Both the position numbers and the translations under genes were made by a program. The notes below the pieces were generated by a model. It was not told where the DNA came from and did not search any database. It saw nothing but the letters and a program-made list of their open reading frames with translations. DNA of 64,000 nucleotides from Microthyrium microscopicum (taxonomy: Eukaryota), in the NCBI GenBank assembly GCA_010405405.1, contig MU004230.1:1646627-1710626 (forward strand). The letters are read 5' to 3'. Below are positions 7,524 through 64,000 of the stretch, piece after piece. How positions within the stretch are numbered: position 1 is the stretch's first letter; every line of letters begins with the position of its first letter.

Positions 7524-10500
7524 TCACTGGCTGTAACCACCCATATCTCCAAAATATTGCCCCTGCTGCTGTTGTTGCTGGCCATATTGTGACTGCTGCA
7601 GTCCTAGACCCATCCCGCTTTGTCTGGCAGGCATGTTTGCCGGCGGATAGGTAGCCTCGTGTTGTTGTCCTAAGCTATACTGCTGCTGCTCATTGATGCT
7701 TGAGCCGCGCGAGCGTGGCGTCATTACTGCTGGCGGATACGACGTTCCAGTTTGGAACTGGTTACTGTAGGCATCCACGTCGAGTAGGGTGGCGTTGGGA
7801 AATGGGTATGTGAGTTGGGGAGGTGGGGCGTTGATGGATATGGTTGGCATCACGTCCATCTCGCCTGGCTCCTCTGAGTACATGAACGCGCTCGCCGTTG
7901 TAGGCAGCATAGATGGGTGTGTGGGCATAGATGCCATTTGGTACGCGGTGGCAGTGCGTGCGTTGGTAGTGGAAGAAGTATCGCGGGCGCCTGGATGCTG
8001 TTCGACAAGCGGGATGATGGGCATGGCGATTTGCTCCATATGTTTCGCGAGATGCACGGTAAGTTTCTTGAACGACGTGCACGTATTGCCGCAGAAGCGA
8101 CAGGGCTCAGAGGAAGGTGTTTTGTCCGAGTCCTTGCGGCAATCTTCCACCAGGCGGCCGACGTAGTCGTTGACTTCCTCGTCGCTGCGCGGGTAGTGCA
8201 GAACACCAGTGCCAAAGTCAATGGGCGCGTGGGCCGGGCCACGAGCGGGCGAACGCGAGCCAGCGTTGCGGCCGGTGCGGATCTTTGGCTCGGGGATCTT
8301 GTGTTCGCGCACTAGGTGCTGGACGAAATTGTCGCGCCGATAGCAGACGTGGGAGCAATCGTTGTAGCAGCAGGTCCAGCTTTCCAGCTGACGGTGGCGC
8401 TCGTTCTCGTGGCGGACCCAGTCTGCTTTACGCTTGAAGGACTTTGAATCGGTGCAGTCTGGGAATGTGCAGGTGAAGGGTTGAACGTCTTCGTGAATAT
8501 GTTTTGTCCAGTCCGATGGCTTTTTGAAATCTTTGACTTTGAAGCAGTAAGGGCATTCGAATCGTGCAGGTAAAGTCTTGACTGGCGGGAGTGGTATACC
8601 GAAAGGGAATTGTGCCGCTTGGTTATCACCTTCAAGTTCTTGGCTGTCAAGATCCTGTCCGGGTCCAACGACTTGAAATACGACAGGCAAAGCGTCGGAA
8701 CTCTTGCCGTTCAGTTTTGGTTCTAGTGGTTGCGCTTGGCCGCCCACGGCAGTGCAGTAGCCTTTTGAGCTACAATGCCCTTTCATGGTAGTAACTCTCT
8801 GGTGATCGATCCTAGAGTCTACAAGTCGTTTGTAACGTTTTGATTGTTCTTGGACCAAGCGATCTAGAATCTTGGGCTCGAGGTGAGGATTTAAAGAATT
8901 GATCTGTCTCTGGAAGCCATCGAAGGTTGGTATCACATTCATGTCCAAGCGCACTGTAAGATCCATTGTTACTCCCGTCTCGCCTTCGCCATCTTCATCG
9001 CTATCTTCGCCAGCGTCCTGAGGATGTGGAGAAGGGGACAAAAGAGATTGCCCAAACGGAATAGCTGGTGACGCAAGTGTTCCAACTGGAGGCCCTCCAT
9101 GTTTGCGCCATTGATCAGCCAGATGACCACCTGGAGACCGAGATCTGCCAATGTTTCCAATGTCACTTTTACTTCTGTGCCGAAACTTTTGGATTGTTGC
9201 CATGATAGGAGAGCGTCCTTCTGTACCAGTTGATGATAGGTTGGTGTCTAGCATGGGTGTCTTGGGTCGCCCTAACAAGCTGCTCTTTCTTCGAGGCATT
9301 GATGGGCCTGCATTCTGAGTTTCGGCTTTAACAGCAGAGGGTGCTGTGACGGATGACCCTGCGTCAGACTTCCTCTTTTTGCTATTGCTTCTGCTAGGGA
9401 CTCTTCCAGGTAGCATGTTACTGAAGTATCCAGATATGCCTTTCTTCTCTTTGCTTTGATTATTGGGGTCGATGGTAACTTCACGAGAAATACCAGGTTG
9501 GGACCATAGACTATCAAGGTCTGCAAGATCAGTCACACTTCGACGTCGTGACCCAATTGTTGCTGCAAGAGAGGCATTGTCAACCTCTTTGGCCTTGCTT
9601 TGATATACCATCATAGCATCGTTTGCAGTGTATGGCTGATTTCGATCAGAATCCCCCGATGGAGCAGTTGGCAGATCAATATCAACCCAAGGTCGTACCT
9701 TTGGATCCCTTGGTGGTGAACCATTGCTTGCCTGAGAACGATTTCGTACATCCGCGGGAGGAGAAGAAGGCTCTCGGTCTTCTTCGGTGTTTGAGGAACC
9801 TTCTTCGCCATCCTCTTCCTCGCCTTCGCCAAACTCGCTTGCTTCGCTAACCAAAACGCCAGGGCCGGGTTGTGGTACGTTCAAATACCCACTGTAGGCT
9901 GTGATATCATTCGTACTTCTGGCTCTTGGTCGATTTTGATGCTGGCGACTTCGTCTAGGAGCTGGATAATCTTCATTTTCGAAAATCCAGTGTTCCACAT
10001 GCTGGTTGCGAGCGTCACGATTTCTCTGCTCTTCTTGCTCGTCTAGAGTTGGCATCTCTCCAGCATCATTTATGACAGATCTTTCGATTGGACTGAGGCC
10101 GCCAGTTCCACGTTCTGTCCGCCATGAGCCATCGTCATTACGTGTAGTACTGAAATCAGATGTTTGAGTTGCGCCAATTGTAGTGTTTCCAGACCAATCT
10201 TCTTCATCAAAGTACTCTTCTTCATCAGCGTAGGGAGATAGAAGGTTGTTGCTAGCTTGGCTTCGTCGACTCAGACTCCGAGAAAGACCTATTGGGTCGG
10301 GATCGTCATCGCAATTCTCGATTCTTACAATAGGACTTTTCATTGGTGATCGAGAAAGGTCGTTCGAAGAGCCATTAGGGGGTGTAATATTATGCGAATC
10401 TTCTGTAGAATAAACATTATTTCCAAAGTTTGGGACGTTGAGACTGAGATTACTGGGCCGTTGGTCCGTTTGATAAGAGTTTTGTGGACCAAAGTGAGGA

Positions 10501-22315: not shown

Positions 22316-23108
22316 AAGTAGTGCGCGATCCGATAAAAGTCTTTCGTTTGTCTTTCCCTTGGTGTTGAAGCGGAGTGTAACCCCTTTGAAGATGGGATGC
22401 ACTGAGCCTTGACACGCCAACATGTCCTGGCATGGACTTAATGTTTTCCCCTGCGATGGATATGATACCAAAGAATGGATGGCCGCTTTTTTATCTGTTC
22501 TATTCCCCTCTTGTTCCGCGGTTGAAAGACATCGCCTAGTGCTTATACGCGTCACTTAGTGACAGTCCGACTCTGACTTGCATATTCAGATATATACGTT
22601 GAAATCTTCAGTAACGTTGCTACGGCAGAAGACATATTTGCACCCCTGACTCATGGTCAATTTCCACAGATGACCTTTTCCTGATCTTGTGATGAATTTC
22701 GAGTCCCTTCGCGTGATAAACAATCGTGTAGGTAAGATGAGGTCGACAATTTGCATCCTGTCTCATGATGATGCTATTCTCTTGGCTGTCAAATCTTTGA
22801 TATACAATAGGTTAAAAAGACGAGGACCTGATTAAGTGGCGACAAGCGCGTTTATATGGCGGCAGAGGCGTGTAATCGCGCTTGTTTTGGCCCAACGTCG
22901 TCGCAAACTGACAGAGTAGATTGTCGGCTCGTTTTTAGTCTTTGAAGGCATTAAGATCATTGAGATTGATTGAACGGGACTTGTGGACACCTCTTCATCA
23001 ACATATTTGCCAAGGGCAGCCTCGATGTGCAGAGAATCGCTCTAGAGACTACTTGAAAGTCAGGTCACACATACACGCTTTATCCGGACCATCATACCAT
23101 GTATCGAA

Positions 23109-25132
23109 ATGCCCAAGCTTCGAGAAACATGCACACGTTGCTCTCGACGTCGACAGAAATGCGACAAGCAGATTCCGTGCTGGCGATGTGTTCGCGATGG
23201 AGTGGGGGCGTCGTGCTCTCGAAGTTGGGGTGAAGGGTACGATGCTCGGGTGCATCGGACCTATCCCAAGGACTCTGGAACAAATCCTTCTGAGCCAAAC
23301 TCTAGGGACGGAACTATTTTGCATACTACTGGGCCGCCCACACCTGCGCCGGCAGCGCCGCAGTCAGGTCTGACTGGGACCCCGGATGGCGACAAGGTCT
23401 TTTTGCAATCTCTTGTGCCCCAAAGCTTGCAAATACTGCAGCTTGTCGACTACCACGAACTGCAACTTCTCTGGTCCCACAACTGCTTGAATGGACCGGT
23501 TTTCAGAAGAGAGGTAGCTAGTGCAATCAAAGCGCCTGGTGGCCTGCAAGTCAAAAATCTCGACTTGAGATGGACTGCTCTTCTCTTTGCTGTCATGGCT
23601 TCAAGCTTGACTTGTGCCCCAGCATCATTTCTCCACAATTGGGGCTTCCCGGAATCTCAGCGAAGAACGTTGAGCGAGCGATGGTATAAAGCCACAATAT
23701 CATGCTTGAATCTGGGGACCTACATATCGAAACCTCATGTATACTCTCTCCAAGCCATCCTGGTGGCTACCAATTCAGCCAATATCATAGGATATGCAAG
23801 TGAGCAATTTATCCTGTACGGCGCGTTGCTGCGCATGGCTCAAGGGCTTGGTTTAAACCGTCTGCCGTTGAGTCCAGAGCTAGATGACCTTGATTCTCAC
23901 GATGGTATAATTCCACAGTCTCGGAGGGAAAACATTTCTTCAAGAGAGGTTGGAAGGAGACTTTGGAAAAACATATGCATTCAAGACTGGCTCTCAACTC
24001 AGTTTTCAGGTAGGCGTATGCACGTCTACATATTAGCATTCTCTAACTAGATGTAGGCATGGTGTCCATAAGTAAACAACAATTTACAACCTCAATTCCT
24101 CGTCGAATAGATGATGAGTCTCTTCGATTTGTAGACGAACGCACACCACTAGGGATTGATTACACACAATATGTCTACGAAGTGTCGTCCCTATTAGCTG
24201 ATTTCTATGGAGCGATTGGAGGCATCTCTGAGGATGCACAACAATATGAGATTATTCTGAAGTTTGACACGAAAATCCGAGCACTTGGGGTAGGCAGTAT
24301 GGCAACATGCTTCAACTACGTACGGCAACCGGCTAGGCATTTACCATGGGTGGACTGGGCAAGACGAGCAGCGATCATGTTCCAAGCCAGCAAAACTATG
24401 TCTCTGCATCGTAACTTCTTACTCAAAAGCTTCACGGAGCCGAAGTATGCGTACACGAGATGGGTGTCTATCACCACATCGAAGATTGTTTTACGAGAGG
24501 CTGAGGCAGATCTTGATGACCCGGAAAGTCCCAAACTTTGGACTACACAAGCTCAGGTAGTTGTAGCCGCAAGGACATTATGTCTCGATATTCGACATCG
24601 CTCTGAGACTGAGCCAGAATACGCAGAACATCGAGAGCTAATTGAACGAGCACTCGATATTCTACACAAGTACGGTGACAGCGCGCTAGCATCCAAGGGA
24701 ATACAGTTGATCACTTCAATACTTCGAACAGGACGACCACCTTCCCAGGAATCAAGAGACACCTCTATGCGAGAAGTTGATAACAACAGCCAAGACCACG
24801 AAGAACATCCAGTCACATGGCCTTTAGATAGCCAGATGAGCGCTTCCAACATGAAGCAGCATGGCCCCGAGACCCCGGAGAGTCTGCCGCCAGCTGGATC
24901 AGGACACTTCACTCCCCAGCGATTACTGCAAGATGGCAGTACCACCGTCACAGATGCCTCGCACACTGCTTTATATGATGCCGCGCTGCAGCAGCCACCT
25001 CATTTCGATATTATGAGTTCATCGGGCGCCACGGGGTTTGGCGCATATGGAACGCATGATGTGCCGATTATCGATCTTTTCTCCGACTATATACCTTCGC
25101 GGAACGGGTTTGACGACGCTTTTTTCTCATAA
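23109..25132 (+). CDS. Zn(II)2Cys6 transcription factor with fungal-specific TF middle domain
   Basis: N-terminal CTRCSRRRQKCDKQIPCWRC......CS binuclear cluster; AQGLGLNR and REVGRRLWKNICIQDW middle-domain motifs; one intron near 24010-24057. Confidence 0.92.
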
Positions 25133-26296: not shown

Positions 26297-27839
26297 ATGC
26301 AATATCACGATCAGGAATCAACAACTTCTAACCAGGACTTGGAGAAAGCCAGTGCCCCAGATGGTTCACATTCAGACATCGTAGAGCCAACAACAAAATC
26401 AGAGATACCTAGAGGAGTGAACCCTTGGGATCCCAGCCAATTTCCAGATGGAGGACTCAAAGCATGGCTTGTCGTTGCTGGGAGCTTTTCTTGTCTGTTT
26501 TGCAGTTTTGGATGGATCAATTGTAAGTTGCTCGGTGTGTTCCACCAATTCACAGTTTAACGCGTGCTCTAGGTATTGGAATTTTCCAGGACTACTATCA
26601 AACCCACCAACTGAAAGAATTTTCACCAAGTACAATCTCATGGATTGGTTCACTTGAGGTGGCTCTTATGCTGTTCGGGGTAAGTAGACATCACCATTAT
26701 AACATACTTCGAAGTCGTCACTAAAGGAAACAAGGGATTATTTGTGGGAAGGATTTATGATAACTTTGGTCCTCGCCCTCTCCTTATTTTCGGTACCTTC
26801 TTTCATGTGTTTGGGCTCATGATGACTTCAATATCGACTGAATACTACCAAATTCTTCTTGCGCAGGGGATATGTAGTCCCATTGGCATCGCCTGTCTTT
26901 TCACTCCTGGTGAGTCCGACGTATTCTCGATTTGCTCAGTAGCTTACAGTTCTAGCTACGAACTCAGTAGTAACGTGGTTCATGAAGAGACGAGCGTTTG
27001 CTATTGGCATAGTAGCGTCTGGCTCTAGTTTGGGTGGCGTGATATTTCCTATCATGTTCAACAAGCTGATTGCAGAAGTTGGATTTGGCTGGGCCATGCG
27101 TATTTCTGCATTCCTGATTCTCGCCATGCTCATTTTCGCTATACTCACTGTGGAGCCACGCATGTCTCCATTACCGACGCCATTCAAAGTGTCGCAATAC
27201 ACACAAGCACTCAAAGAATGGCCTTTCGTCCTTACCACAATTTCTGCATTCCTTTTCTATCTCGGACTGTTCATTCCTATCAACTACATTCAGACTCAAG
27301 CTATCGAGTTTGGCATGGAGGCCTCCTTAGCGGCGTACTTGATTCCAATCTTGAATGCAGCAAGGTAAGTCATACTACCTCCATAGCACTTACATTCGAC
27401 TAATTCTGCTAGTATCTTCGGCCGAGTCTGTCCCGGCTATGCTGCCGACAAGATCGGAAAATACAACGTAAACATCATCACCTGTTTCCTTTCTGGAATT
27501 ATGTGCTTGGCTCTCTGGCTTCCTGGCAACTCGAATGCCGCCATAATTGTCTTCGCGGCATTATATGGATTCAGCTCTGGCGCCTTCGTTTCTCTACTCT
27601 TTGCGCTTATTGCACAGATTTCGGATATGAGAGAGATTGGCATGCGTTCCGGCTTCATGTGTGCTATCCTCGCTATACCATCTCTCGTCAGTAATCCAAT
27701 TGGTGGGGCTCTCATTACTCATGATCATGGTCAGTTCCGTGATGTCCAAATTTGGGCAGGCGTCATCATGTTGGCAGGCGCTTGTATGTTCGTTGTCACC
27801 CGAACCGCCATGGTTGGCTTCCGGTTTGTAAAGGTCTAA
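26297..27839 (+). CDS. MFS monocarboxylate-type transporter (multi-exon)
   Basis: [58 protein letters not shown] and [11 protein letters not shown] are MCT/Mch-family motifs. Confidence 0.93.
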
Positions 27840-29563
27840 TCTGTAATTTATCTTCTGTGCCTGCCCATATAACTCATAGAAGTACTTCGGTGGATAATAC
27901 TCCAACTCTACTCTTCATTAGACTTAGAATAATCATTCAGTAATCATCTTGACAATCGGTCGCTCTGTTTTGAACGGGCTTTTGATGTACCCAGCGCATA
28001 CCTAGAAACATGTCAAAGGAATCCATCAGCTCATAGGAGGTACATTCTCTGAAGCATTGCAATTTCTGTGCACTTTACACATAGCCTTTCGAGTACATTG
28101 CCAAACTTGCCACGCGCTCCTTGCATTGCTGGTAAACAGTAGTAGCATATCATAGGACTTTCGAGCTATTCTCTTTCTCCAGTATTACTCTCCAGATATT
28201 AACCTAAATATGATGATCAACTGTCTACATCACTGTACAACATCATGTCTTGGCCGCATCATTTAGTGACAAGCTCTCAGTTTCTCATAAAGTACTACAA
28301 TTCTCATTGTGAGCTCATATTATAATCGAATATTTCTGAAAGAACAATTAAGTAAGAGATCTCCAACTGGTACTCATCGCGATTGGTGGCATAGTTATAT
28401 TGCGATAATCAAGACGACATCATTCTTTATGTCGAATCGTAATGTTACGCTTTTCACAAATTGTGGGAACGCCGTATATGGAACGAAAATATTCCAGTGA
28501 GGAGAAACGTGGGGCTCAAAATAGACACCATAGGGTAAACAATTATTATAGTCGGCATATCCGTAAGGTCCAGATTCTCTTATACAATGCACGAACGAAT
28601 TACACAGCACTCGAAAACCGGTTGCAGTGCGCAACTAACTTATGACACGAACTTGCCAAAGCGTCTTATGGCCAATGGGTAACACGAGTTTATCATTTCC
28701 TGGTTTTTGGTACTGGTTTGCCCCTTGAATTGCCTATGTGTGCCTGTTATATGGTGTTGTCCAGGCGTTCAGAATAGCCCTGATGCATAAATCTATGGAA
28801 GTGACAGGTTCCTGAAATGCGGTAAGGTATGGATTGGATCAATTCTCATAATGTTTTGTTTTCCTGGAGTTAAAACGTTCTCTAATATTAGCTACGGACA
28901 AAATAGCTTGTAACACAATGACAATGCATATCGTTCTACAGTACTGCATTTCATTGGATCTGAGGGTTCATACACATCATACCAAGAACCATTATTGAAT
29001 CAGTTCTCAACAATCTCGCCACACAGCATCTAGAGATCGAATCAACATCACCATCGTCTTGGCTCGAAACAGTTAGTCAGGACAAGCTTTCAGAAGTTTC
29101 CAGGTTTCTGGCTGGGCAACTATGTTTGAGCTTTTACTGCTATTGTTTCCTAACACAATAATGTCACTACAATAGCAAGGATTAAGTGTGCTATATATTG
29201 CTAAAATGACGATCTAACCACAGTGTTTTTCGCCAAGCCATTCTAATTGGGAAAGCATGGTATCACATCCCCCAGATTTTCACCTAGTATACTATGCCGC
29301 AGTGGCCAAATGCTAGAAGCCCTTGTATCGACAGTCGATCATCCGGTCGTAGGTTATTGTGAGCTTGTCATGCCATGTTCAATTGACACCATTGCTCGCA
29401 CCATGCCGAACCCGATGTCCGAGTGGAAATTGGTTTCTCGTATCATTTGGCGCTGAAGTTGTGTATATAAATCAAGAGTGAACCTCCCCAACTACGGTTC
29501 AGAATATCCAACACTCAACATACAATCTTTTCATCAACTCTTCAATACCACAATCCTTTCATC

Positions 29564-30118
29564 ATGTACTTTATGAAATCAGCTTTCATTGCTATCCTTG
29601 GCCTTGGAGCCTTGGCTCTTGCTGCTCCAGCTCCACCTCAAGGGTGAGTTCACTCAACCATGGTCTCCCTCATCCTCTCTGTGATCAATCAGTTCGTTGT
29701 CCAAGCCCTGTGCTTGCCCGTTCCAATTGCTCTCATAGAAGGTCACTGCCAGGCCAGGCATATTTTCCTGCAACCGCTCGCTAACACGACATAGCCGTCC
29801 AGGAAACTTCAGAGGCCCAGAAGGCCCTGGCCCAAGGGGTCCAGGAGGTCCAGGCCCACGAGGACCAGGTCCAAATGGTCCACCCGGCGGCTTCAGAGAC
29901 GTAAGCGCTCGATGGCACTATGACTATCATGATAGCTTGATACTGACGTCTTTTTAGGGTCCTCGCGGACCACCAGGCCCACCAGGCGGTTTCAGAGATG
30001 TAAGTGGAGCACTAAGACTCATAATTGCTTGAAGTACTGTGATTGATATGGCGGCTTTATACTGACATGTTTTCAGGGCCCTCGCGGACCACCAGGCCCT
30101 CCAGGTCGTCCCTTTTAA
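29564..30118 (+). CDS. Small secreted Gly-Pro-rich collagen-like protein (89 aa, 4 exons; not in the ORF track)
   Basis: Exons 29564-29643, 29795-29900, 29958-29999 and 30077-30118 have canonical GT..CTRAC..AG introns and splice in frame to a signal peptide followed by GP repeats. TATATAAA lies ~100 nt upstream. Confidence 0.88.
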
Positions 30119-31289
30119 GTTCGAGATCGATAGGTCTGTTTAGCTATTGAACAGGGAGGAACTGATACTGGTGCCTCTACCTATTGTAAGGCTAGAGTTG
30201 ACCTAGCTAGCTCTTGTCCATGGGCCATTGCTGAACTGTACTATTCTTGTGTAATATTGAAAAAAAGAAATCAATCAAACGTTCGAATGCAAAGATAGCG
30301 TTAACATGCTCAGGAGTTGTGTATGATGAAAGTAATTGTTTTCGTTTCTACAATTCAATAATTCGATGACGGATGAGGTAATGGCAGTGTACGGAATACA
30401 GAGACCCGACTTGTCTGCCATTGATGAGTAAGATCTGTAAAACTGCCGGACAGTGCCTACTAGACCTGGAAAGTCGCAACGAGCAAGTATAACAGTCGGC
30501 TCGACGGCGCGATACTAAGTCTCACTCGCGTGTGCTTGGGTCTAAACGACCAACTCCCGGAAGAAAGATTGGCGCTTCCGAAGAGCAAAATAATTGAGAA
30601 ATCATGCAGCTAGCCTTCACTCTTCCATACTCTCGGTACAGAGTGGGACTTGCGCCGTACTCGGTTCGCCGTAGAAAAACCTACATGTTATCCCTGTATT
30701 GATAAGACGCGCTTGTAAAGGGACAGTTTCCTATGCTTGAAGCACGATGGATGTTCAAACAGGCTTGTTGGATGAAGAAGCAATGATTTCTCTTGAGAGA
30801 GAAGTAGGAGGTGAGATAGTTGTAGATGCGTGGGGTGAGGAAGCTGAAACAACGTGAATGGTTGAAACTGGACTTCCACGTTTTTACAAAGATCTGTGCG
30901 TGGCGCCCAAACGTGGCTTAGTGGTTCCTCCCGTTCCGCGGCCAGAGTGCTGCCAACTCCATTTCTCAGTTCGGCTACAGTTGTCGCACGACAGGGTCAA
31001 CAACACCAGACTTAGTCAGTTCCAGCTCGGATGGGAAATAAGACCCGCAGATTGCAGCAGTGGAACATGCATGGCTGGTGGACTTTGTTGGACGGTCTAG
31101 CTTTTGCGAACGCACGCTGCGCGCGGGATCCACTCCCTCTCCTTTGCCAACCCCCCGCGTTCGTTCGTTCCAAGTTTCAACATCAGATAATAGCTACTTT
31201 TCTCTCCTCCTACTTCTCCTTTGCCCAATCTCAACATCCTCTTCGCCTTCTCCGTCATACTGTTCGCTCTACGTAGATCGCTCGTCAAA

Positions 31290-32805
31290 ATGTCCGATCC
31301 AGTGACCCAACCTCAATCCGCCGATGCCGAAACTGACGGTTATCACTCTGCCTCCCCTAGCCTTCATGACGGAAAACTCAACGAGCTAGATAATGTACCC
31401 GAGCAGTCACTAGACTTTACACATTACAATTCAGATGCGCGAGACTACGATACCGACCACGATTACGATGCTGATAGCGCTATCGATAACGAATCTTTGA
31501 TTGGCGACGATACACGATCCCTCAACTCCACTGTCACCAGTTATAGATATGAGCATGGTCGACGATATCATGCGTATAAAGATGGCGCATATTGGGTAAG
31601 AAATTTCCCGACTTGGTGCTTTGATACGTGGAACGTCTTGTTCTCAGACCTAGGCTCTCCAAAGCCAAAGTCAGAACTTGAGATTATTCGAATAGACATG
31701 TCTTCAGAGTCAAGAGATATTGTGACAAGACTTCAAAATCACATTGAACGTCTGCAATACTTCGTGAAAAATTAGGAGCATGCGACTTGTCACATCAAAC
31801 AATCGCAAGCTTTGAAGCCCAGGAGATTTCTTGCTTACAAAATCCAGGGTCCAAATGACGAAAATGCGAACGAAATCCAAGATCTTGCTCACCACATGTA
31901 TCTTCTCACGTTAAACAACAAACTTCACCTAGCGCCCATAGATCAACCACATGTAAAGACCACCAGTCAAAGCGAATGTTCAGTCAGCTAATACAAAGCT
32001 TTAGAACGTCCTCGATGTTGGATGCGGTACTGGCATGTGGGCAATCGACATGGCCGATCAGTATCCTTCCGCCGTGGTTCTAGGAGTAGACCTATCACCC
32101 ATTCAGCCAGCATTCGTACCACCAAACTGTCATTTTGAAGTAGACGACCTCACACTAGAGTGGACCTTTCAGGAAGATTTCTTCGAGTTCATACACGTCC
32201 GAGAAATGTTTGGCAGCATACCAGATTGGGATGAGTTCTTTGACCAATGCTTCCGATGCACAAAATCTGGTGGCTGGATTGAAGTAGTCGAGCATGCGGT
32301 TACACCAATCTCACGGGATGGCACACAAGCAGAAGATCATTTCTACCACGAATGGGGTCGAACAGTGGTTGAGATGGGGCAAAAGAATGGAAAATCGTTT
32401 ACGATCTGGGAAGAGGCGAAAGAACGGCTGGAGAAAGCAGGCTACGTTGATGTTCATGAGGTGCATTATGACTGGCCAATGAATGGTTGGTCGAATGATC
32501 CCAAGATGAGAGATATTGGACGATGGAATCAGCTCCGATTACATTCTGGTATTGAGGGGTTCATGCTGAGGCTATTGACATCAGTTGGCGATGTATGTGC
32601 CCGAGGGTTCATTTTTTGTTGACATTATGCTGACTTTTGGTTAGTGGTCCTATGAGAAAGCTCAATGCTTCATGGCGGACATGCGAAAAGCTTTGCGTGA
32701 CTACTCTGTCCATGCTTATCTTCCCGGGCAAGTATCCATCTCCTTTAACTCGATTGATAGCTGATAAATTATGCTAGTACGGTTGTGTATGGACGAAAAC
32801 CTTGA
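31290..32805 (+). CDS. SAM-dependent methyltransferase, LaeA-like/TAM family (multi-exon)
   Basis: YRYEHGRRYHAYKDGAYW/GPNDE, LHLAPI, VLDVGCGTGMWAIDMAD, GVDLSPIQP..VPPNCHFEVDD and terminal VYGRKP are the standard motifs of this fungal family. Confidence 0.93.
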
Positions 32806-58987: not shown

Positions 58988-59830
58988 CTACATGGAGACC
59001 AAGAATAGGAATATACTAAGACCACCGATGCTTAATGTCCAATGTAATGACTGCTTTGTTGCCCAAGAGGATTTTGTGAGATGTATACTGGGATCGCATT
59101 TGAACCCAATGCCGGTACCATTCGGCCATGTCACATTGTGACACTTTGACCTTTCGACCATGGACTGTGAGACCTGATCCACAACTTGCTGATCAACGGT
59201 AAAGGCGCATGGTATTGGATCAGGCCGTGGAGTTGATAGTAGCGGACAGGCAGGATTGGTTTGGTTTGGTCCTTGTATGCCGACTACGCCTATTGAAGGA
59301 GGACATGAACCGTCTGCTCTAATATCTGGCATAGAACCTGAGGTCTTGCTGATGTTGAAAAATATTCGGTCCCGTCTGCCAGGATAGTTGAAGTCGTCGT
59401 CACGAATATATTTGCCAAAACAACCCAGATCATTTCCTACCACAAAGCCATATTCTAATACCCAGGTCGATTCGTTTGTTCTGGCCATCGAGTTTGAGGC
59501 ATTGATAGCAAGGTATTTGGCTGCAGGAGGACCCCATCCAGCAGGCGCGCCTTCACCGTATCCCTCTCCTATCCTACCTCTGCCTTCGTCGATCTCTCTC
59601 TCTGTCGTCAGCTGTAGTAATCTCCAGGTAACGGCCGGCTTGTAATTCCATGAAGTTGAGAAATTGTGCAGACCGAACACAAAGGGGAATGGGAAAACTG
59701 GTTGATAAACTGTGTTATTTCGGGGAAAGATTAGATCGACCTGAACAGTTGTATCAATGGAGCTGGAAAGAGAGGACTGTGAGAAGAGAGCAGCGATCCA
59801 TAATGAAACAGTGCAGAATTTCAAAATCAT
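58988..59830 (-). CDS. Secreted, probably GPI-anchored fungal glycoprotein of unknown function
   Basis: Signal peptide, VDLIFPRNNTVYQP.FPFPFVFGLHN motif seen in an uncharacterised fungal family, several Cys and N-glycosylation sequons, hydrophobic C-terminus. Confidence 0.85.
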   Translation of the reverse strand: MILKFCTVSLWIAALFSQSSLSSSIDTTVQVDLIFPRNNTVYQPVFPFPFVFGLHNFSTSWNYKPAVTWRLLQLTTEREIDEGRGRIGEGYGEGAPAGWGPPAAKYLAINASNSMARTNESTWVLEYGFVVGNDLGCFGKYIRDDDFNYPGRRDRIFFNISKTSGSMPDIRADGSCPPSIGVVGIQGPNQTNPACPLLSTPRPDPIPCAFTVDQQVVDQVSQSMVERSKCHNVTWPNGTGIGFKCDPSIHLTKSSWATKQSLHWTLSIGGLSIFLFLVSM

Positions 59831-60952
59831 GGTTGCTGCACACAGCTACCCGATGCTTGTAGATTCGTACAGCGATGAAGATTTGTGCTGGGTAGTCTCA
59901 TGTATTCAAGCATGATTTTGAGCACTTAGAAATAAGACGAATTCAAAGCTGATGTGTTCTGCTCGAGATCCTAGACTTAGCAATATTTATACATACACGT
60001 TGTATTCTTGATGGTGTGATTCGCTGATATTAGAGGGCAGGGCTTATTCGATAGACAATATTGGGTGATCTCCTATGTATTCTATTAATGACTTTAAAGT
60101 ACCTGAATCCTACTTTGATCCTTCTAATCAATGTAGTACTTAGCATGGCGGCATATCATGTAACTGTTGAGATTCACAATAACCCATATACATACAAGCT
60201 TATCAAGAGAGTAATGAGCCTGTACTGAGTGTGAATAGCGTTTTCAATATATAAGTGAAGTAAAAGTAAAGCAATGCAGAAAACAATATTTCCAAACTTA
60301 TAAAGGCATTAGCAGAAATTATTCTCCGATTATTGAAATCCTGTGGCACTTGAAGGAACAGGTAAACATCTTATCTCACAGGAACATGCCTATTATTTCC
60401 TATCAATAACAAGTTGTGAAAATGGAGTTCTCTGTTCTCTTCTCTCCTCATGCAGCCAATTTTGCTTAGTTCGGCAACAACCGAAACAGCAGAACTGGTA
60501 CTTCTTAGCATTATTATTTATCAACCGCCAAGCTCATCTGCAATGGTTACCGTTGTTTGCTACTCCTATCCCGGCTCATTTTCGAGTTAGTCGGGTCCAC
60601 TTTTTCCAACCTTGGATGGTGCCGTATTTCCACCACTGTGCATGTACCTAATACTCGCTTGCTGGCCTGGATTGGCCTTCTCATGCTGCCGCTACATTCG
60701 GCCGCGTTTGCTACCAATGAAAGAACAGGATAGCTTGGTAGATGTGGCTGATATTTCAATCTAGTACTTAGACTTGTCGCTCAACCCATAAAAAGTAATG
60801 CGATTCATATCGTGTGACTCTACCTCACTCCTTGCTATCACTGCTTCAATGTTGTTGAACTATTGCGATTCGAGGAGTACATGATTGACCTATAGCGCAC
60901 TTAAATACGTCCAATTTTTTATGCTGCCGATTTAGCAAACAACAAACAGAAT

Positions 60953-62784: not shown

Positions 62785-62984
62785 CTTGACAGCTTCCCCT
62801 TGCAAATATAACGAAGAAAGACTTTGCGTCTTCAAGTTTATACGTGGGGTCTTTTTAAATCTACGGTATCAATATATGGAGACCAGGTTCAATTGCTATT
62901 GACCGTAATTGCGTGATAAGCGCAACTCTGACGAACAATTTGAGTTGAAGCTTATCCTGCTATGGAAATTGTTCATTTCATCTT

Positions 62985-64000
62985 CTACAGTTGTGACATG
63001 GCCAGTTTTTTCACTGAAGGAATAGGAGATCAGCTTGATACTTTCTAATAACAGACTCAGTCTTCTCAACTTACATCTCAGCTCCCGTAAATCCAGGTCC
63101 CAGACACTGATATACTTCTCTAGCACCGCTGATCCTAATACTATTCCGTATGGCAACCTTGATTCCGTGAATAGGCTCTCGCATCGAGCTGCATTGTCAT
63201 CACCAGCCATGCTTTCAATTGTATACTCGTATGCGCTGAGTCGAAAAAACATAGGCAGTCCCAAACTTGTTCCCACATCCATAATGAACTCTGGCATGTC
63301 GCTCCGTCCTTCACAGTTCACAACATAAGGAGCAGTCTTTGAGCTTGGTAACTTGATCATATCGTTGATTTTTTGAGCATAGGGAATCGGGAGAATGATT
63401 CCTGGACGATCAAGTGAGAGTTCTACTTCATTGTAATCCGGTGGGATGATATGTGGGCCAAATGAAATGTTGTTCGCTTGCAAAACCCAAGCATTCCGCC
63501 GGAAGCTCCGATCAGATATTGGTAGAGCGATGATAGCAGTATCCAGTGGATCAAATCGTGAAATCCCAAAGGTAAGATTTCCTTCTGCTCTGTTTCCACT
63601 AGCAGGCTGGGGGCCATGTGGCAATTCGAGGGAGAAGATGTTTTGAGCCAGCGAATTGTTCCCGACCAGTCTTTTCAAAGGAGATGTTATCCCTTCTCCA
63701 GCTGAGCTTGGGATGAATGGAGCTAGACCAAATACTCCATCAAAGCCAGGAATATTAGTACTGAAGTTCCCGTCCGTCGTGAGATATGTTGCGTCTAGAA
63801 ATTCTAATCCAGGAATAGAATATCCGCCAAATTGTGCTATGTCTTTGACGAGATTCCCATCAAAAGCTGTGTTTGAATACTGAGAAACTGACTCAAATTT
63901 GCTATCCAAAAACGTTGTAGAGGCCTTTTCATTGAACTTGTGTCGGCCCTTCTCTTGGCACAGAGTATCTTTGCATTGCGATGATGGAAGCATAAGACCT
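62985..64000 (-). CDS. Pepsin-family (A1) aspartic protease homolog, 3' part; second catalytic motif degenerate
   Basis: FDGVFGLAP, NIFSLEL, GNLTFG, YVVNC...MPEF, LSAYEY and IVLGSAVLEKYISVWDL match the pepsin fold. A terminal intron near 63074-63014 gives ...LRLKKLAMSQL stop. The 5' end lies outside the window. Confidence 0.85.

Follow-up and report, generated by a model that had tools for sequence, protein, structure and literature searches.

A small unannotated gene of Microthyrium microscopicum encodes a predicted secreted glycine- and proline-rich protein with repeat units duplicated together with their intron

Structure and surroundings of the gene

Microthyrium microscopicum is a leaf-litter ascomycete (Dothideomycetes, Microthyriales). 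In a 64-kb stretch of its genome, which was analysed as a whole and is called the window here, a small gene is located on the + strand. When its four exons are joined by script, an open frame of 270 nt results, which consists of 89 codons and a TAA stop, and the translation is letter for letter the protein that had been proposed in an earlier note on this DNA. A pattern scan revealed a TATA-like box at 29464..29469 (+), about 95 nt upstream of the ATG, which is a putative promoter element. The first ATG on the 3′ side of this box is the start codon at 29564, with none between them.

Exon 1 (29564..29643; 80 nt, ending in phase 2) codes for the start codon, the predicted signal peptide (approximately residues 1–20, 29564–29623) and the stretch Ala-Pro-Ala-Pro-Pro-Gln that comes next. 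Intron 1 (29644..29794; 151 nt; GTGAGT...CTAAC...TAG) is in phase 2 and separates it from exon 2 (29795..29900; 106 nt). The two remaining introns are both in phase 0 and represent copies A and B of a duplicated intron, namely intron 2 (29901..29957; 57 nt; GTAAGC...CTGAC...TAG) and intron 3 (30000..30076; 77 nt; GTAAGT...CTGAC...CAG). Between them lies exon 3 (29958..29999; phase 0-0), and the coding part of exon 4 (30077..30118) adds 13 codons and TAA. As the earlier note had it, exons 3 and 4 measure 42 nt each (in exon 4 including the stop codon), are in phase 0 and have a Gly codon first. Each intron has GT..AG ends and a branch motif, CTAAC or CTGAC, 10–15 nt before its 3′ end, which is the usual form of introns in filamentous ascomycetes. 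The 3′ untranslated region extends from 30119 to at least 30280.

A Pfam scan of 57 ORFs across the window outlines the surroundings of the gene. A Zn2Cys6 factor (23046–24050) and an MFS transporter (26943–27839) are encoded upstream, and a Methyltransf_23 gene (~31287–32622, + strand) follows downstream. Since the nearest family-supported ORFs are the transporter, ending at 27839, and the methyltransferase gene, starting at ~31287, the gene is isolated, as had been stated. Elsewhere in the window there are housekeeping genes for STT3, SPC25, EMC3, Sas10/Utp3 and a VTT-domain protein. Neither a RiPP or other biosynthetic-cluster context nor peptide-tailoring enzymes were found among the 57 ORFs. 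With such neighbours and no tailoring enzymes, the context is uninformative on the function of the gene.

The gene is transcribed and spliced

By word content, we matched seven sequencing runs, of which five contain no less than half of the words sampled. The two soil metatranscriptome runs contain fewer of these words; the fraction is 0.20 in X6 (study P3) and 0.16 in X7 (study P4). Contigs from both soil runs, as well as from the DNA-type runs X1 and X4, were aligned to positions 29200–30600 at 90% likeness.

Exons 1, 2 and 3 follow directly upon one another in a contig of X6 (233 nt) and in one of X7 (243 nt). In both, the joints are 29643>29796 and 29900>29958, and exon 1 is covered at 29566–29643 by the X6 contig and at 29556–29643 by the X7 contig. 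The removal of intron 2 is documented with 43 nt on the shorter side of the joint. At the first joint T replaces C29795 in both soil contigs, which is a synonymous Gly change and the single coding difference specified in them. The joint of intron 3 (29999>30077) appears in two 61-nt contigs of one run only, X6, with 23 nt and 38 nt on its two sides; the flanks explain the whole contig with 0–1 mismatches. As the 23-nt side in exon 3 falls under the 30-nt caution line, the support for intron 3 is weaker than that for introns 1 and 2. The GT..AG polarity of all three joints indicates that the transcript lies on the + strand. The case for splicing is made by these joints; intron stretches of X6 and X7 lacking RNA cover carry no weight by themselves.

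None of the three splice joints occurs in the DNA-type runs X1 and X4, which contain solely the unspliced form, in X4, a possible source of the DNA analysed here, with the whole stretch in one contig. A further X6 contig, which covers 30085–30280 and thereby also the known extent of the 3′ untranslated region, differs from the window by two substitutions and a 4-nt deletion. From these differences it appears that the soil RNA stems from a slightly different strain. X6 and X7 share year and habitat and may represent one campaign. A joint from exon 2 directly to exon 4 (29900>30077), as expected for exon skipping, was not seen among the aligned contigs, in which rare forms are dropped. Of the junctions for which the earlier note had called, those of introns 1 and 2 are documented by contigs of both soil runs and that of intron 3 by the short X6 contigs, and the gene is real, expressed and spliced. 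It is thus a naturally expressed fungal gene with tiny exons.

Two minor observations concern the same contigs. In X1, a 59-nt contig skips 30128–30180 (53 nt of the 3′ untranslated region) beside the full form. The ends of the skipped segment, CG..AC, are not intron-like, and the contig is probably due to an indel variant or an assembly bubble. Furthermore, X6 contigs leave the Gly/Pro stretch at 29986 and 30086 for other Gly-Pro-rich coding sequence (109 nt and 255 nt). These loose ends may stem from collagen-like transcripts of other genes, or low-complexity words may have led the assembly to join separate sequences.

Joint duplication of exon and intron

Two kinds of repeats can be discerned in the coding sequence. 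Within exon 2, Tandem Repeats Finder detects 8-residue RGP-type repeats with a 24-nt period (2.5 copies at 29811–29869). The second kind is a unit of 13–16 residues, of which there are three copies with 16, 14 and 13 residues: the tail of exon 2 (29853–29900), exon 3, which codes for GPRGPPGPPGGFRD, and the truncated copy in exon 4.

When the tail of exon 2 and the adjoining intron 2 were aligned with exon 3 and the adjoining intron 3, 80 bases out of 94 aligned proved to be identical. Introns 2 and 3 by themselves agree at 45 of the 52 positions aligned and differ by indels amounting to 30 nt. The score of this alignment is 56, a value attained by none of 1000 shuffles (mean 35.5, maximum 50.5). 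Both the likeness of the two introns and the copying of exon and intron as one unit, which had been read from the sequence by eye, are thereby corroborated, and it is clear that a 42–48-nt exon piece was duplicated in tandem together with its intron to yield the last three units. In Dothideomycetes, introner-like elements multiply the same intron sequence at many unrelated loci. If their mutual match is left aside, introns 2 and 3 find matches of at most 19 nt in the window (E ≥ 0.14), and the absence of any other copy there argues for a local tandem duplication rather than an introner-type element. The repeat itself is equally confined. The seven Gly/Pro-rich 14-residue segments found on both strands of the 64 kb are all located at 29808–30112, and no paralogues were detected within the window, where the best tblastn match outside the locus has an E value of 1.7.

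When comparing the coding parts of the units, it becomes apparent that the peptide has been preserved while the codons have changed. Between the exon-2 tail and exon 3, all seven substitutions are synonymous (binomial P = 2e-4), as are all six between the exon-2 tail and exon 4 (P = 0.0015) and all three within the first 10 codons of exons 3 and 4, which encode the same residues (P = 0.037); the comparisons have branches in common, so that they are not independent of one another. In addition, there are two whole-codon indels among the copies. Since every substitution between units is synonymous, it is reasonable to propose that the peptide sequence is under selective constraint. The locus thus offers a young, still legible coding repeat that has grown by duplication of exon plus intron and in which selection on the peptide is visible.

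We also note that, across 29853–30076, the synonymous divergence between units (7 per 12.5 sites) exceeds the substitution divergence of the introns (7/52), although these are small numbers. Such a synonymous excess over the co-duplicated introns is contrary to expectation if both were copied together.

Properties of the encoded protein

At the N-terminus, Lys5 is followed by a hydrophobic stretch some 15 residues long, in which 11-residue Kyte-Doolittle means reach 2.6, and then by Ala-Leu-Ala before Ala-Pro. No other hydrophobic run occurs within the 89 residues. Judged by these rules, the N-terminus looks like a signal peptide, in line with the secretion that the earlier note had assumed, and we infer that approximately 20 residues would be removed and a chain of ~68–69 residues secreted.

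The putative mature chain has an unusual composition. Of its last 68 residues, 25 are Pro, 23 are Gly, 9 are Arg and 4 are Phe, so that Gly and Pro make up 71%, and with nine Arg against three acidic residues the calculated pI is ~12 at a mass of 6.6 kDa. Over the full 89 residues there is no Cys, no Thr and no N-glycosylation site, and Ser and Lys are confined to the signal peptide. With regard to the surface coat considered in the earlier note, the mature part lacks Ser, Thr, Cys, Lys and a hydrophobic C-terminus, so that the usual routes of attachment to the wall are missing. There are five Arg-Gly-Pro motifs and three Phe-Arg sites (residues 32, 60 and 74), the last two of which lie at boundaries of the exon-coded units. 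Dibasic sites (KR, RR, KK or RK) are absent from the 89 residues.

Fungal small secreted proteins are operationally defined by a signal peptide, a length of less than 300 amino acids and the lack of a membrane anchor. With 89 amino acids, a signal peptide judged by rule and no membrane anchor, the protein falls into this class, and it is apparently an orphan member of the known group of small secreted low-complexity fungal proteins.

Annotation status and search for relatives

The neighbouring methyltransferase gene allowed us to judge the coverage of the protein collections. Its exon at 32005–32622 is 100% identical to the NCBI/UniRef protein P0002 of M. microscopicum, and the proteome of this species is therefore among the sequences searched. 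Homologue searches were carried out with the 35-residue peptide of exon 2 as the sole query. In word-index searches with the exon-2 region, neither the 7 candidates among proteins of 39–126 residues nor the 214 candidates among proteins of 127–2000 residues contained a scoring match. A full phmmer search of the peptide against 1.84 billion representatives gave no hit at E ≤ 0.001, the ESM Atlas contained no usable match, and no chain of the PDB sequences reached E ≤ 10. Likewise, no Pfam family, Collagen (PF01391) included, matched the exon-2 peptide at E ≤ 1; the peptides of exons 3 and 4 (14 and 13 amino acids) are below scannable length.

As a positive control, the same queries were compared with the correctly spliced protein, which gave 51.6 bits; for databases as large as those searched, this corresponds to E values of 5e-9 to 2e-8. 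Since an annotated version of the protein would have been matched, its absence from the collections indicates that the gene is unannotated and has no detectable relatives. This fits the earlier assertion that the gene is invisible to ORF callers, given that the collections do include the product of its neighbour, and standard annotation has apparently overlooked the gene. The designation as an orphan is provisional, because self-identity amounts to just 51.6 bits and relatives scoring under ~34 bits, as well as all unannotated relatives, escape such a search.

Metagenome contigs were also considered. At least 598 stretches matched the search pattern, and among the matches listed two passed tblastn (L001 and L002). 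Both represent the same arginine-rich frame and have one 8-residue word in common with the query, which we attribute to chance. Strings containing Gly-Gly-Phe-Arg, or the start of exon 2, had no occurrence in the literature text searched. The literature listed for fungal collagen-like proteins, secreted Gly/Pro-rich proteins and proline-rich antimicrobial peptides, and that listed under the species name, yielded nothing on this protein.

The public model of the neighbour deserves a remark of its own. P0002 (254 aa) is without the upstream ORF at 31287–31775, residues 59–106 of which match the N-terminus of an Aspergillus homologue (P0016, 336 aa) with 63% identity (E = 7e-18). Because the upstream ORF matches a full-length homologue, the P0002 model looks truncated at its N-terminus, which adds to the signs that the locus is imperfectly annotated. 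With one small gene missed and the adjacent model seemingly truncated, surveys of fungal secretomes probably under-count such small secreted proteins.

Proposed function and alternatives

Our preferred reading, to which we assign a probability of roughly 55%, is that the gene product would be a secreted, flexible and non-globular polycation that acts intact on anionic surfaces. After cleavage of the signal peptide, the 6.6-kDa chain would be located outside the hypha. Its Gly/Pro-rich, Arg-rich and Cys-free composition suggests that it cannot fold into a globule, and it would rather adopt a flexible conformation of the polyproline-II and turn type. As an intact, sticky polycation it might then bind anionic surfaces, either polysaccharides of the wall and the litter or microbial competitors at their envelopes, with an adhesive or antimicrobial effect. 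In this it would be similar to cationic proline-rich peptides and would not rely on a collagen triple helix. The action on anionic surfaces is the weakest part of this explanation, and we put it forward with due caution.

A comparison with proline-rich antimicrobial peptides is instructive. The protein is cationic, rich in Pro (25 of 68 residues, pI ~12) and devoid of Cys, as this group is defined. With the animal representatives of the apidaecin type it has in common that it is Cys-free, strongly cationic, composed of more than 25% Pro and, by prediction, non-globular and secreted, and that it contains tandem units. The apidaecin-type peptides, however, are of animal origin, rich in Pro-Arg-Pro and separated by dibasic or dipeptidyl spacers, whereas in the fungal protein Gly is as abundant as Pro. 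Pro-Arg-Pro is the motif typical of the animal peptides; it is absent from the 89-residue sequence, where Arg stands in Gly-Pro-Arg-Gly and Phe-Arg contexts. A likeness to kinin-type and venom proline-rich peptides was considered as well and set aside. If the peptide proved to be bioactive, it would open a fungal peptide class that is neither Cys-rich nor processed by Kex2.

Instead of acting intact, the chain could serve as a precursor of repeat peptides. On its way through the secretory pathway it would be cut at the three conserved, monobasic Phe-Arg sites, which would free a pair of nearly identical Gly/Pro peptides of 14 residues along with two further fragments, and the copy number would depend on how many modules there are. 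The position of the last two Phe-Arg sites at unit boundaries speaks for such a scenario, and so does the constancy of the unit, kept by selection while the codons drift. Moreover, precursors that carry several copies of a secreted peptide are familiar from fungi, namely the Kex2-processed repeat proteins or KEPs (PMC6339444), which are also the subject of PMC7329392 and PMC9769878. Like these, the protein has tandem near-identical short units, here behind a putative signal peptide, and it is small and probably secreted. Yet the only established fungal route for repeat precursors depends on Kex2, and the lack of any KR, RR, KK or RK site leaves this protease without a canonical site. The protein is therefore not a Kex2 repeat precursor, and we rejected its assignment as a KEP. 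The KEP study adds that its pipeline demands at least three repeats between KR, RR or KK sites and that most described KEPs have four or more, compared with two full units and a truncated third in the present case (PMC6339444). Finally, no processing or tailoring enzyme adjoins the gene. All in all, we regard processing at Phe-Arg as rather unlikely.

One could also argue that the gene is merely young and lineage-specific and has as yet no specific function, being a transcribed and spliced, GC-rich low-complexity ORF that grows by slippage or duplication and is tolerated without being used. The failure of all searches to find relatives, the low-complexity, repeat-driven sequence and the lack of a functional context would agree with this. 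An unconstrained ORF, on the other hand, would not be expected to show exclusively synonymous changes between its units (7/7, 3/3 and 6/6). The signal-peptide-like N-terminus is intact, the three introns preserve the frame, and a TATA-like box is in place. What is more, a slightly different strain transcribes the gene in natural soil samples, and the specified coding change in that strain is synonymous. A gene free of any specific function is thus an improbable explanation.

More far-reaching is the idea of a new class of fungal secreted Pro/Gly/Arg peptides as counterparts of the animal proline-rich multipeptide precursors. In such a class, monobasic cleavage behind Phe-Arg, without the involvement of Kex2, would set the selected 14-residue unit free, the dose of this unit would change in evolution as modules are duplicated, and fungal gene callers would systematically miss genes of the class. 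We mention it as a decidedly speculative extension of the Phe-Arg scenario, with a low probability.

Resemblance to collagen

The intact polycation that we favour has to be distinguished from a collagen, since the earlier note had recognised the Gly-X-Y pattern of collagens and had envisaged a fungal collagen mimic. Exons 3 and 4 both begin by coding for GPRGPPGPPG, a string printed in 11 papers, and all 10 of those listed deal with animal collagen or gelatin. The local resemblance is accordingly real, but it comprises three triplets only. Strict Gly-X-Y runs in the protein have 2, 2, 3 and 4 triplets, altogether 11 (~33 residues) or 17 if Gly is allowed at X or Y, and the longest strict run has 12 residues. 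Gly is found at 9, 6 and 8 out of 23 positions in the respective registers, none of which is dominant. The module of 14 codons (42 nt) is not a multiple of 9 nt, and each module therefore shifts the Gly register by two. Hence the pattern is present for three to four triplets at a time, whereas a long run in a single register is missing, and the notion of a collagen mimic is not supported, given a longest run of four triplets, the distribution over three registers, the 14-codon module and an exon 2 without a Pfam match.

Genes for fibrillar collagens are built of 54-bp-type exons, whose lengths are multiples of 9 bp, so that the triplet register is kept. They resemble the present gene in having phase-0 exons with a Gly codon first and in having grown by duplication of exon units. 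The 42-bp module, by contrast, breaks the register, and here the intron copy is still recognisably similar. The gene has no bearing on the origin of collagen.

Fungi do have collagen-domain proteins; a preprint counts 508 of them and gives median collagen repeat lengths from 85.5 residues in SAR, the shortest group, to 192 in metazoans (bioRxiv 10.1101/2021.10.08.463732). Such fungal proteins, e.g. MCL1 of Metarhizium, share with our protein the secretion, which is predicted here, and Gly-Pro-X triplets. They differ in having a long, unbroken (Gly-X-Y)n stretch, a match to the collagen profile and other domains or anchors, as opposed to at most four strict triplets in a shifting register, an exon 2 without a profile match and no other domain.

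It is true that Gly-Pro-Arg is a triplet that stabilises the helix in the absence of hydroxyproline, but a mini-collagen, in which three chains would pair via GPR-GPP-GPP into a short triple helix and form a coat or fibre, is highly improbable: the 11 triplets are scattered, with a period of 14 residues the register is lost from one unit to the next, exon 2 lacks a match to Pfam and to any PDB chain at the thresholds given above, the whole mature chain is repeat without a non-collagenous trimerisation domain, there is no anchor, and a 12-residue run faces the medians of 85.5–192 in that preprint (bioRxiv 10.1101/2021.10.08.463732). The resemblance to collagen is local only, and a reading of the protein as a collagen is not supported.

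Other features of the window

At some distance from the gene, further features of the window were recorded. On the − strand, an uninterrupted ORF of 1193 codons at 7524–11105 matches none of the Pfam families at E ≤ 0.001. Towards the end of the window, 58988–59845 (−) codes for a DUF7136 protein and 62896–63999 (−) for an aspartyl protease of the secreted type, with no evident link to the gene described here. Between 44000 and 54000 there is an AT-rich block with 21–34% GC, compared with 44–51% elsewhere, and no ORF of at least 110 aa is present between 44955 and 54889. This block looks like a repeat region degraded by RIP.
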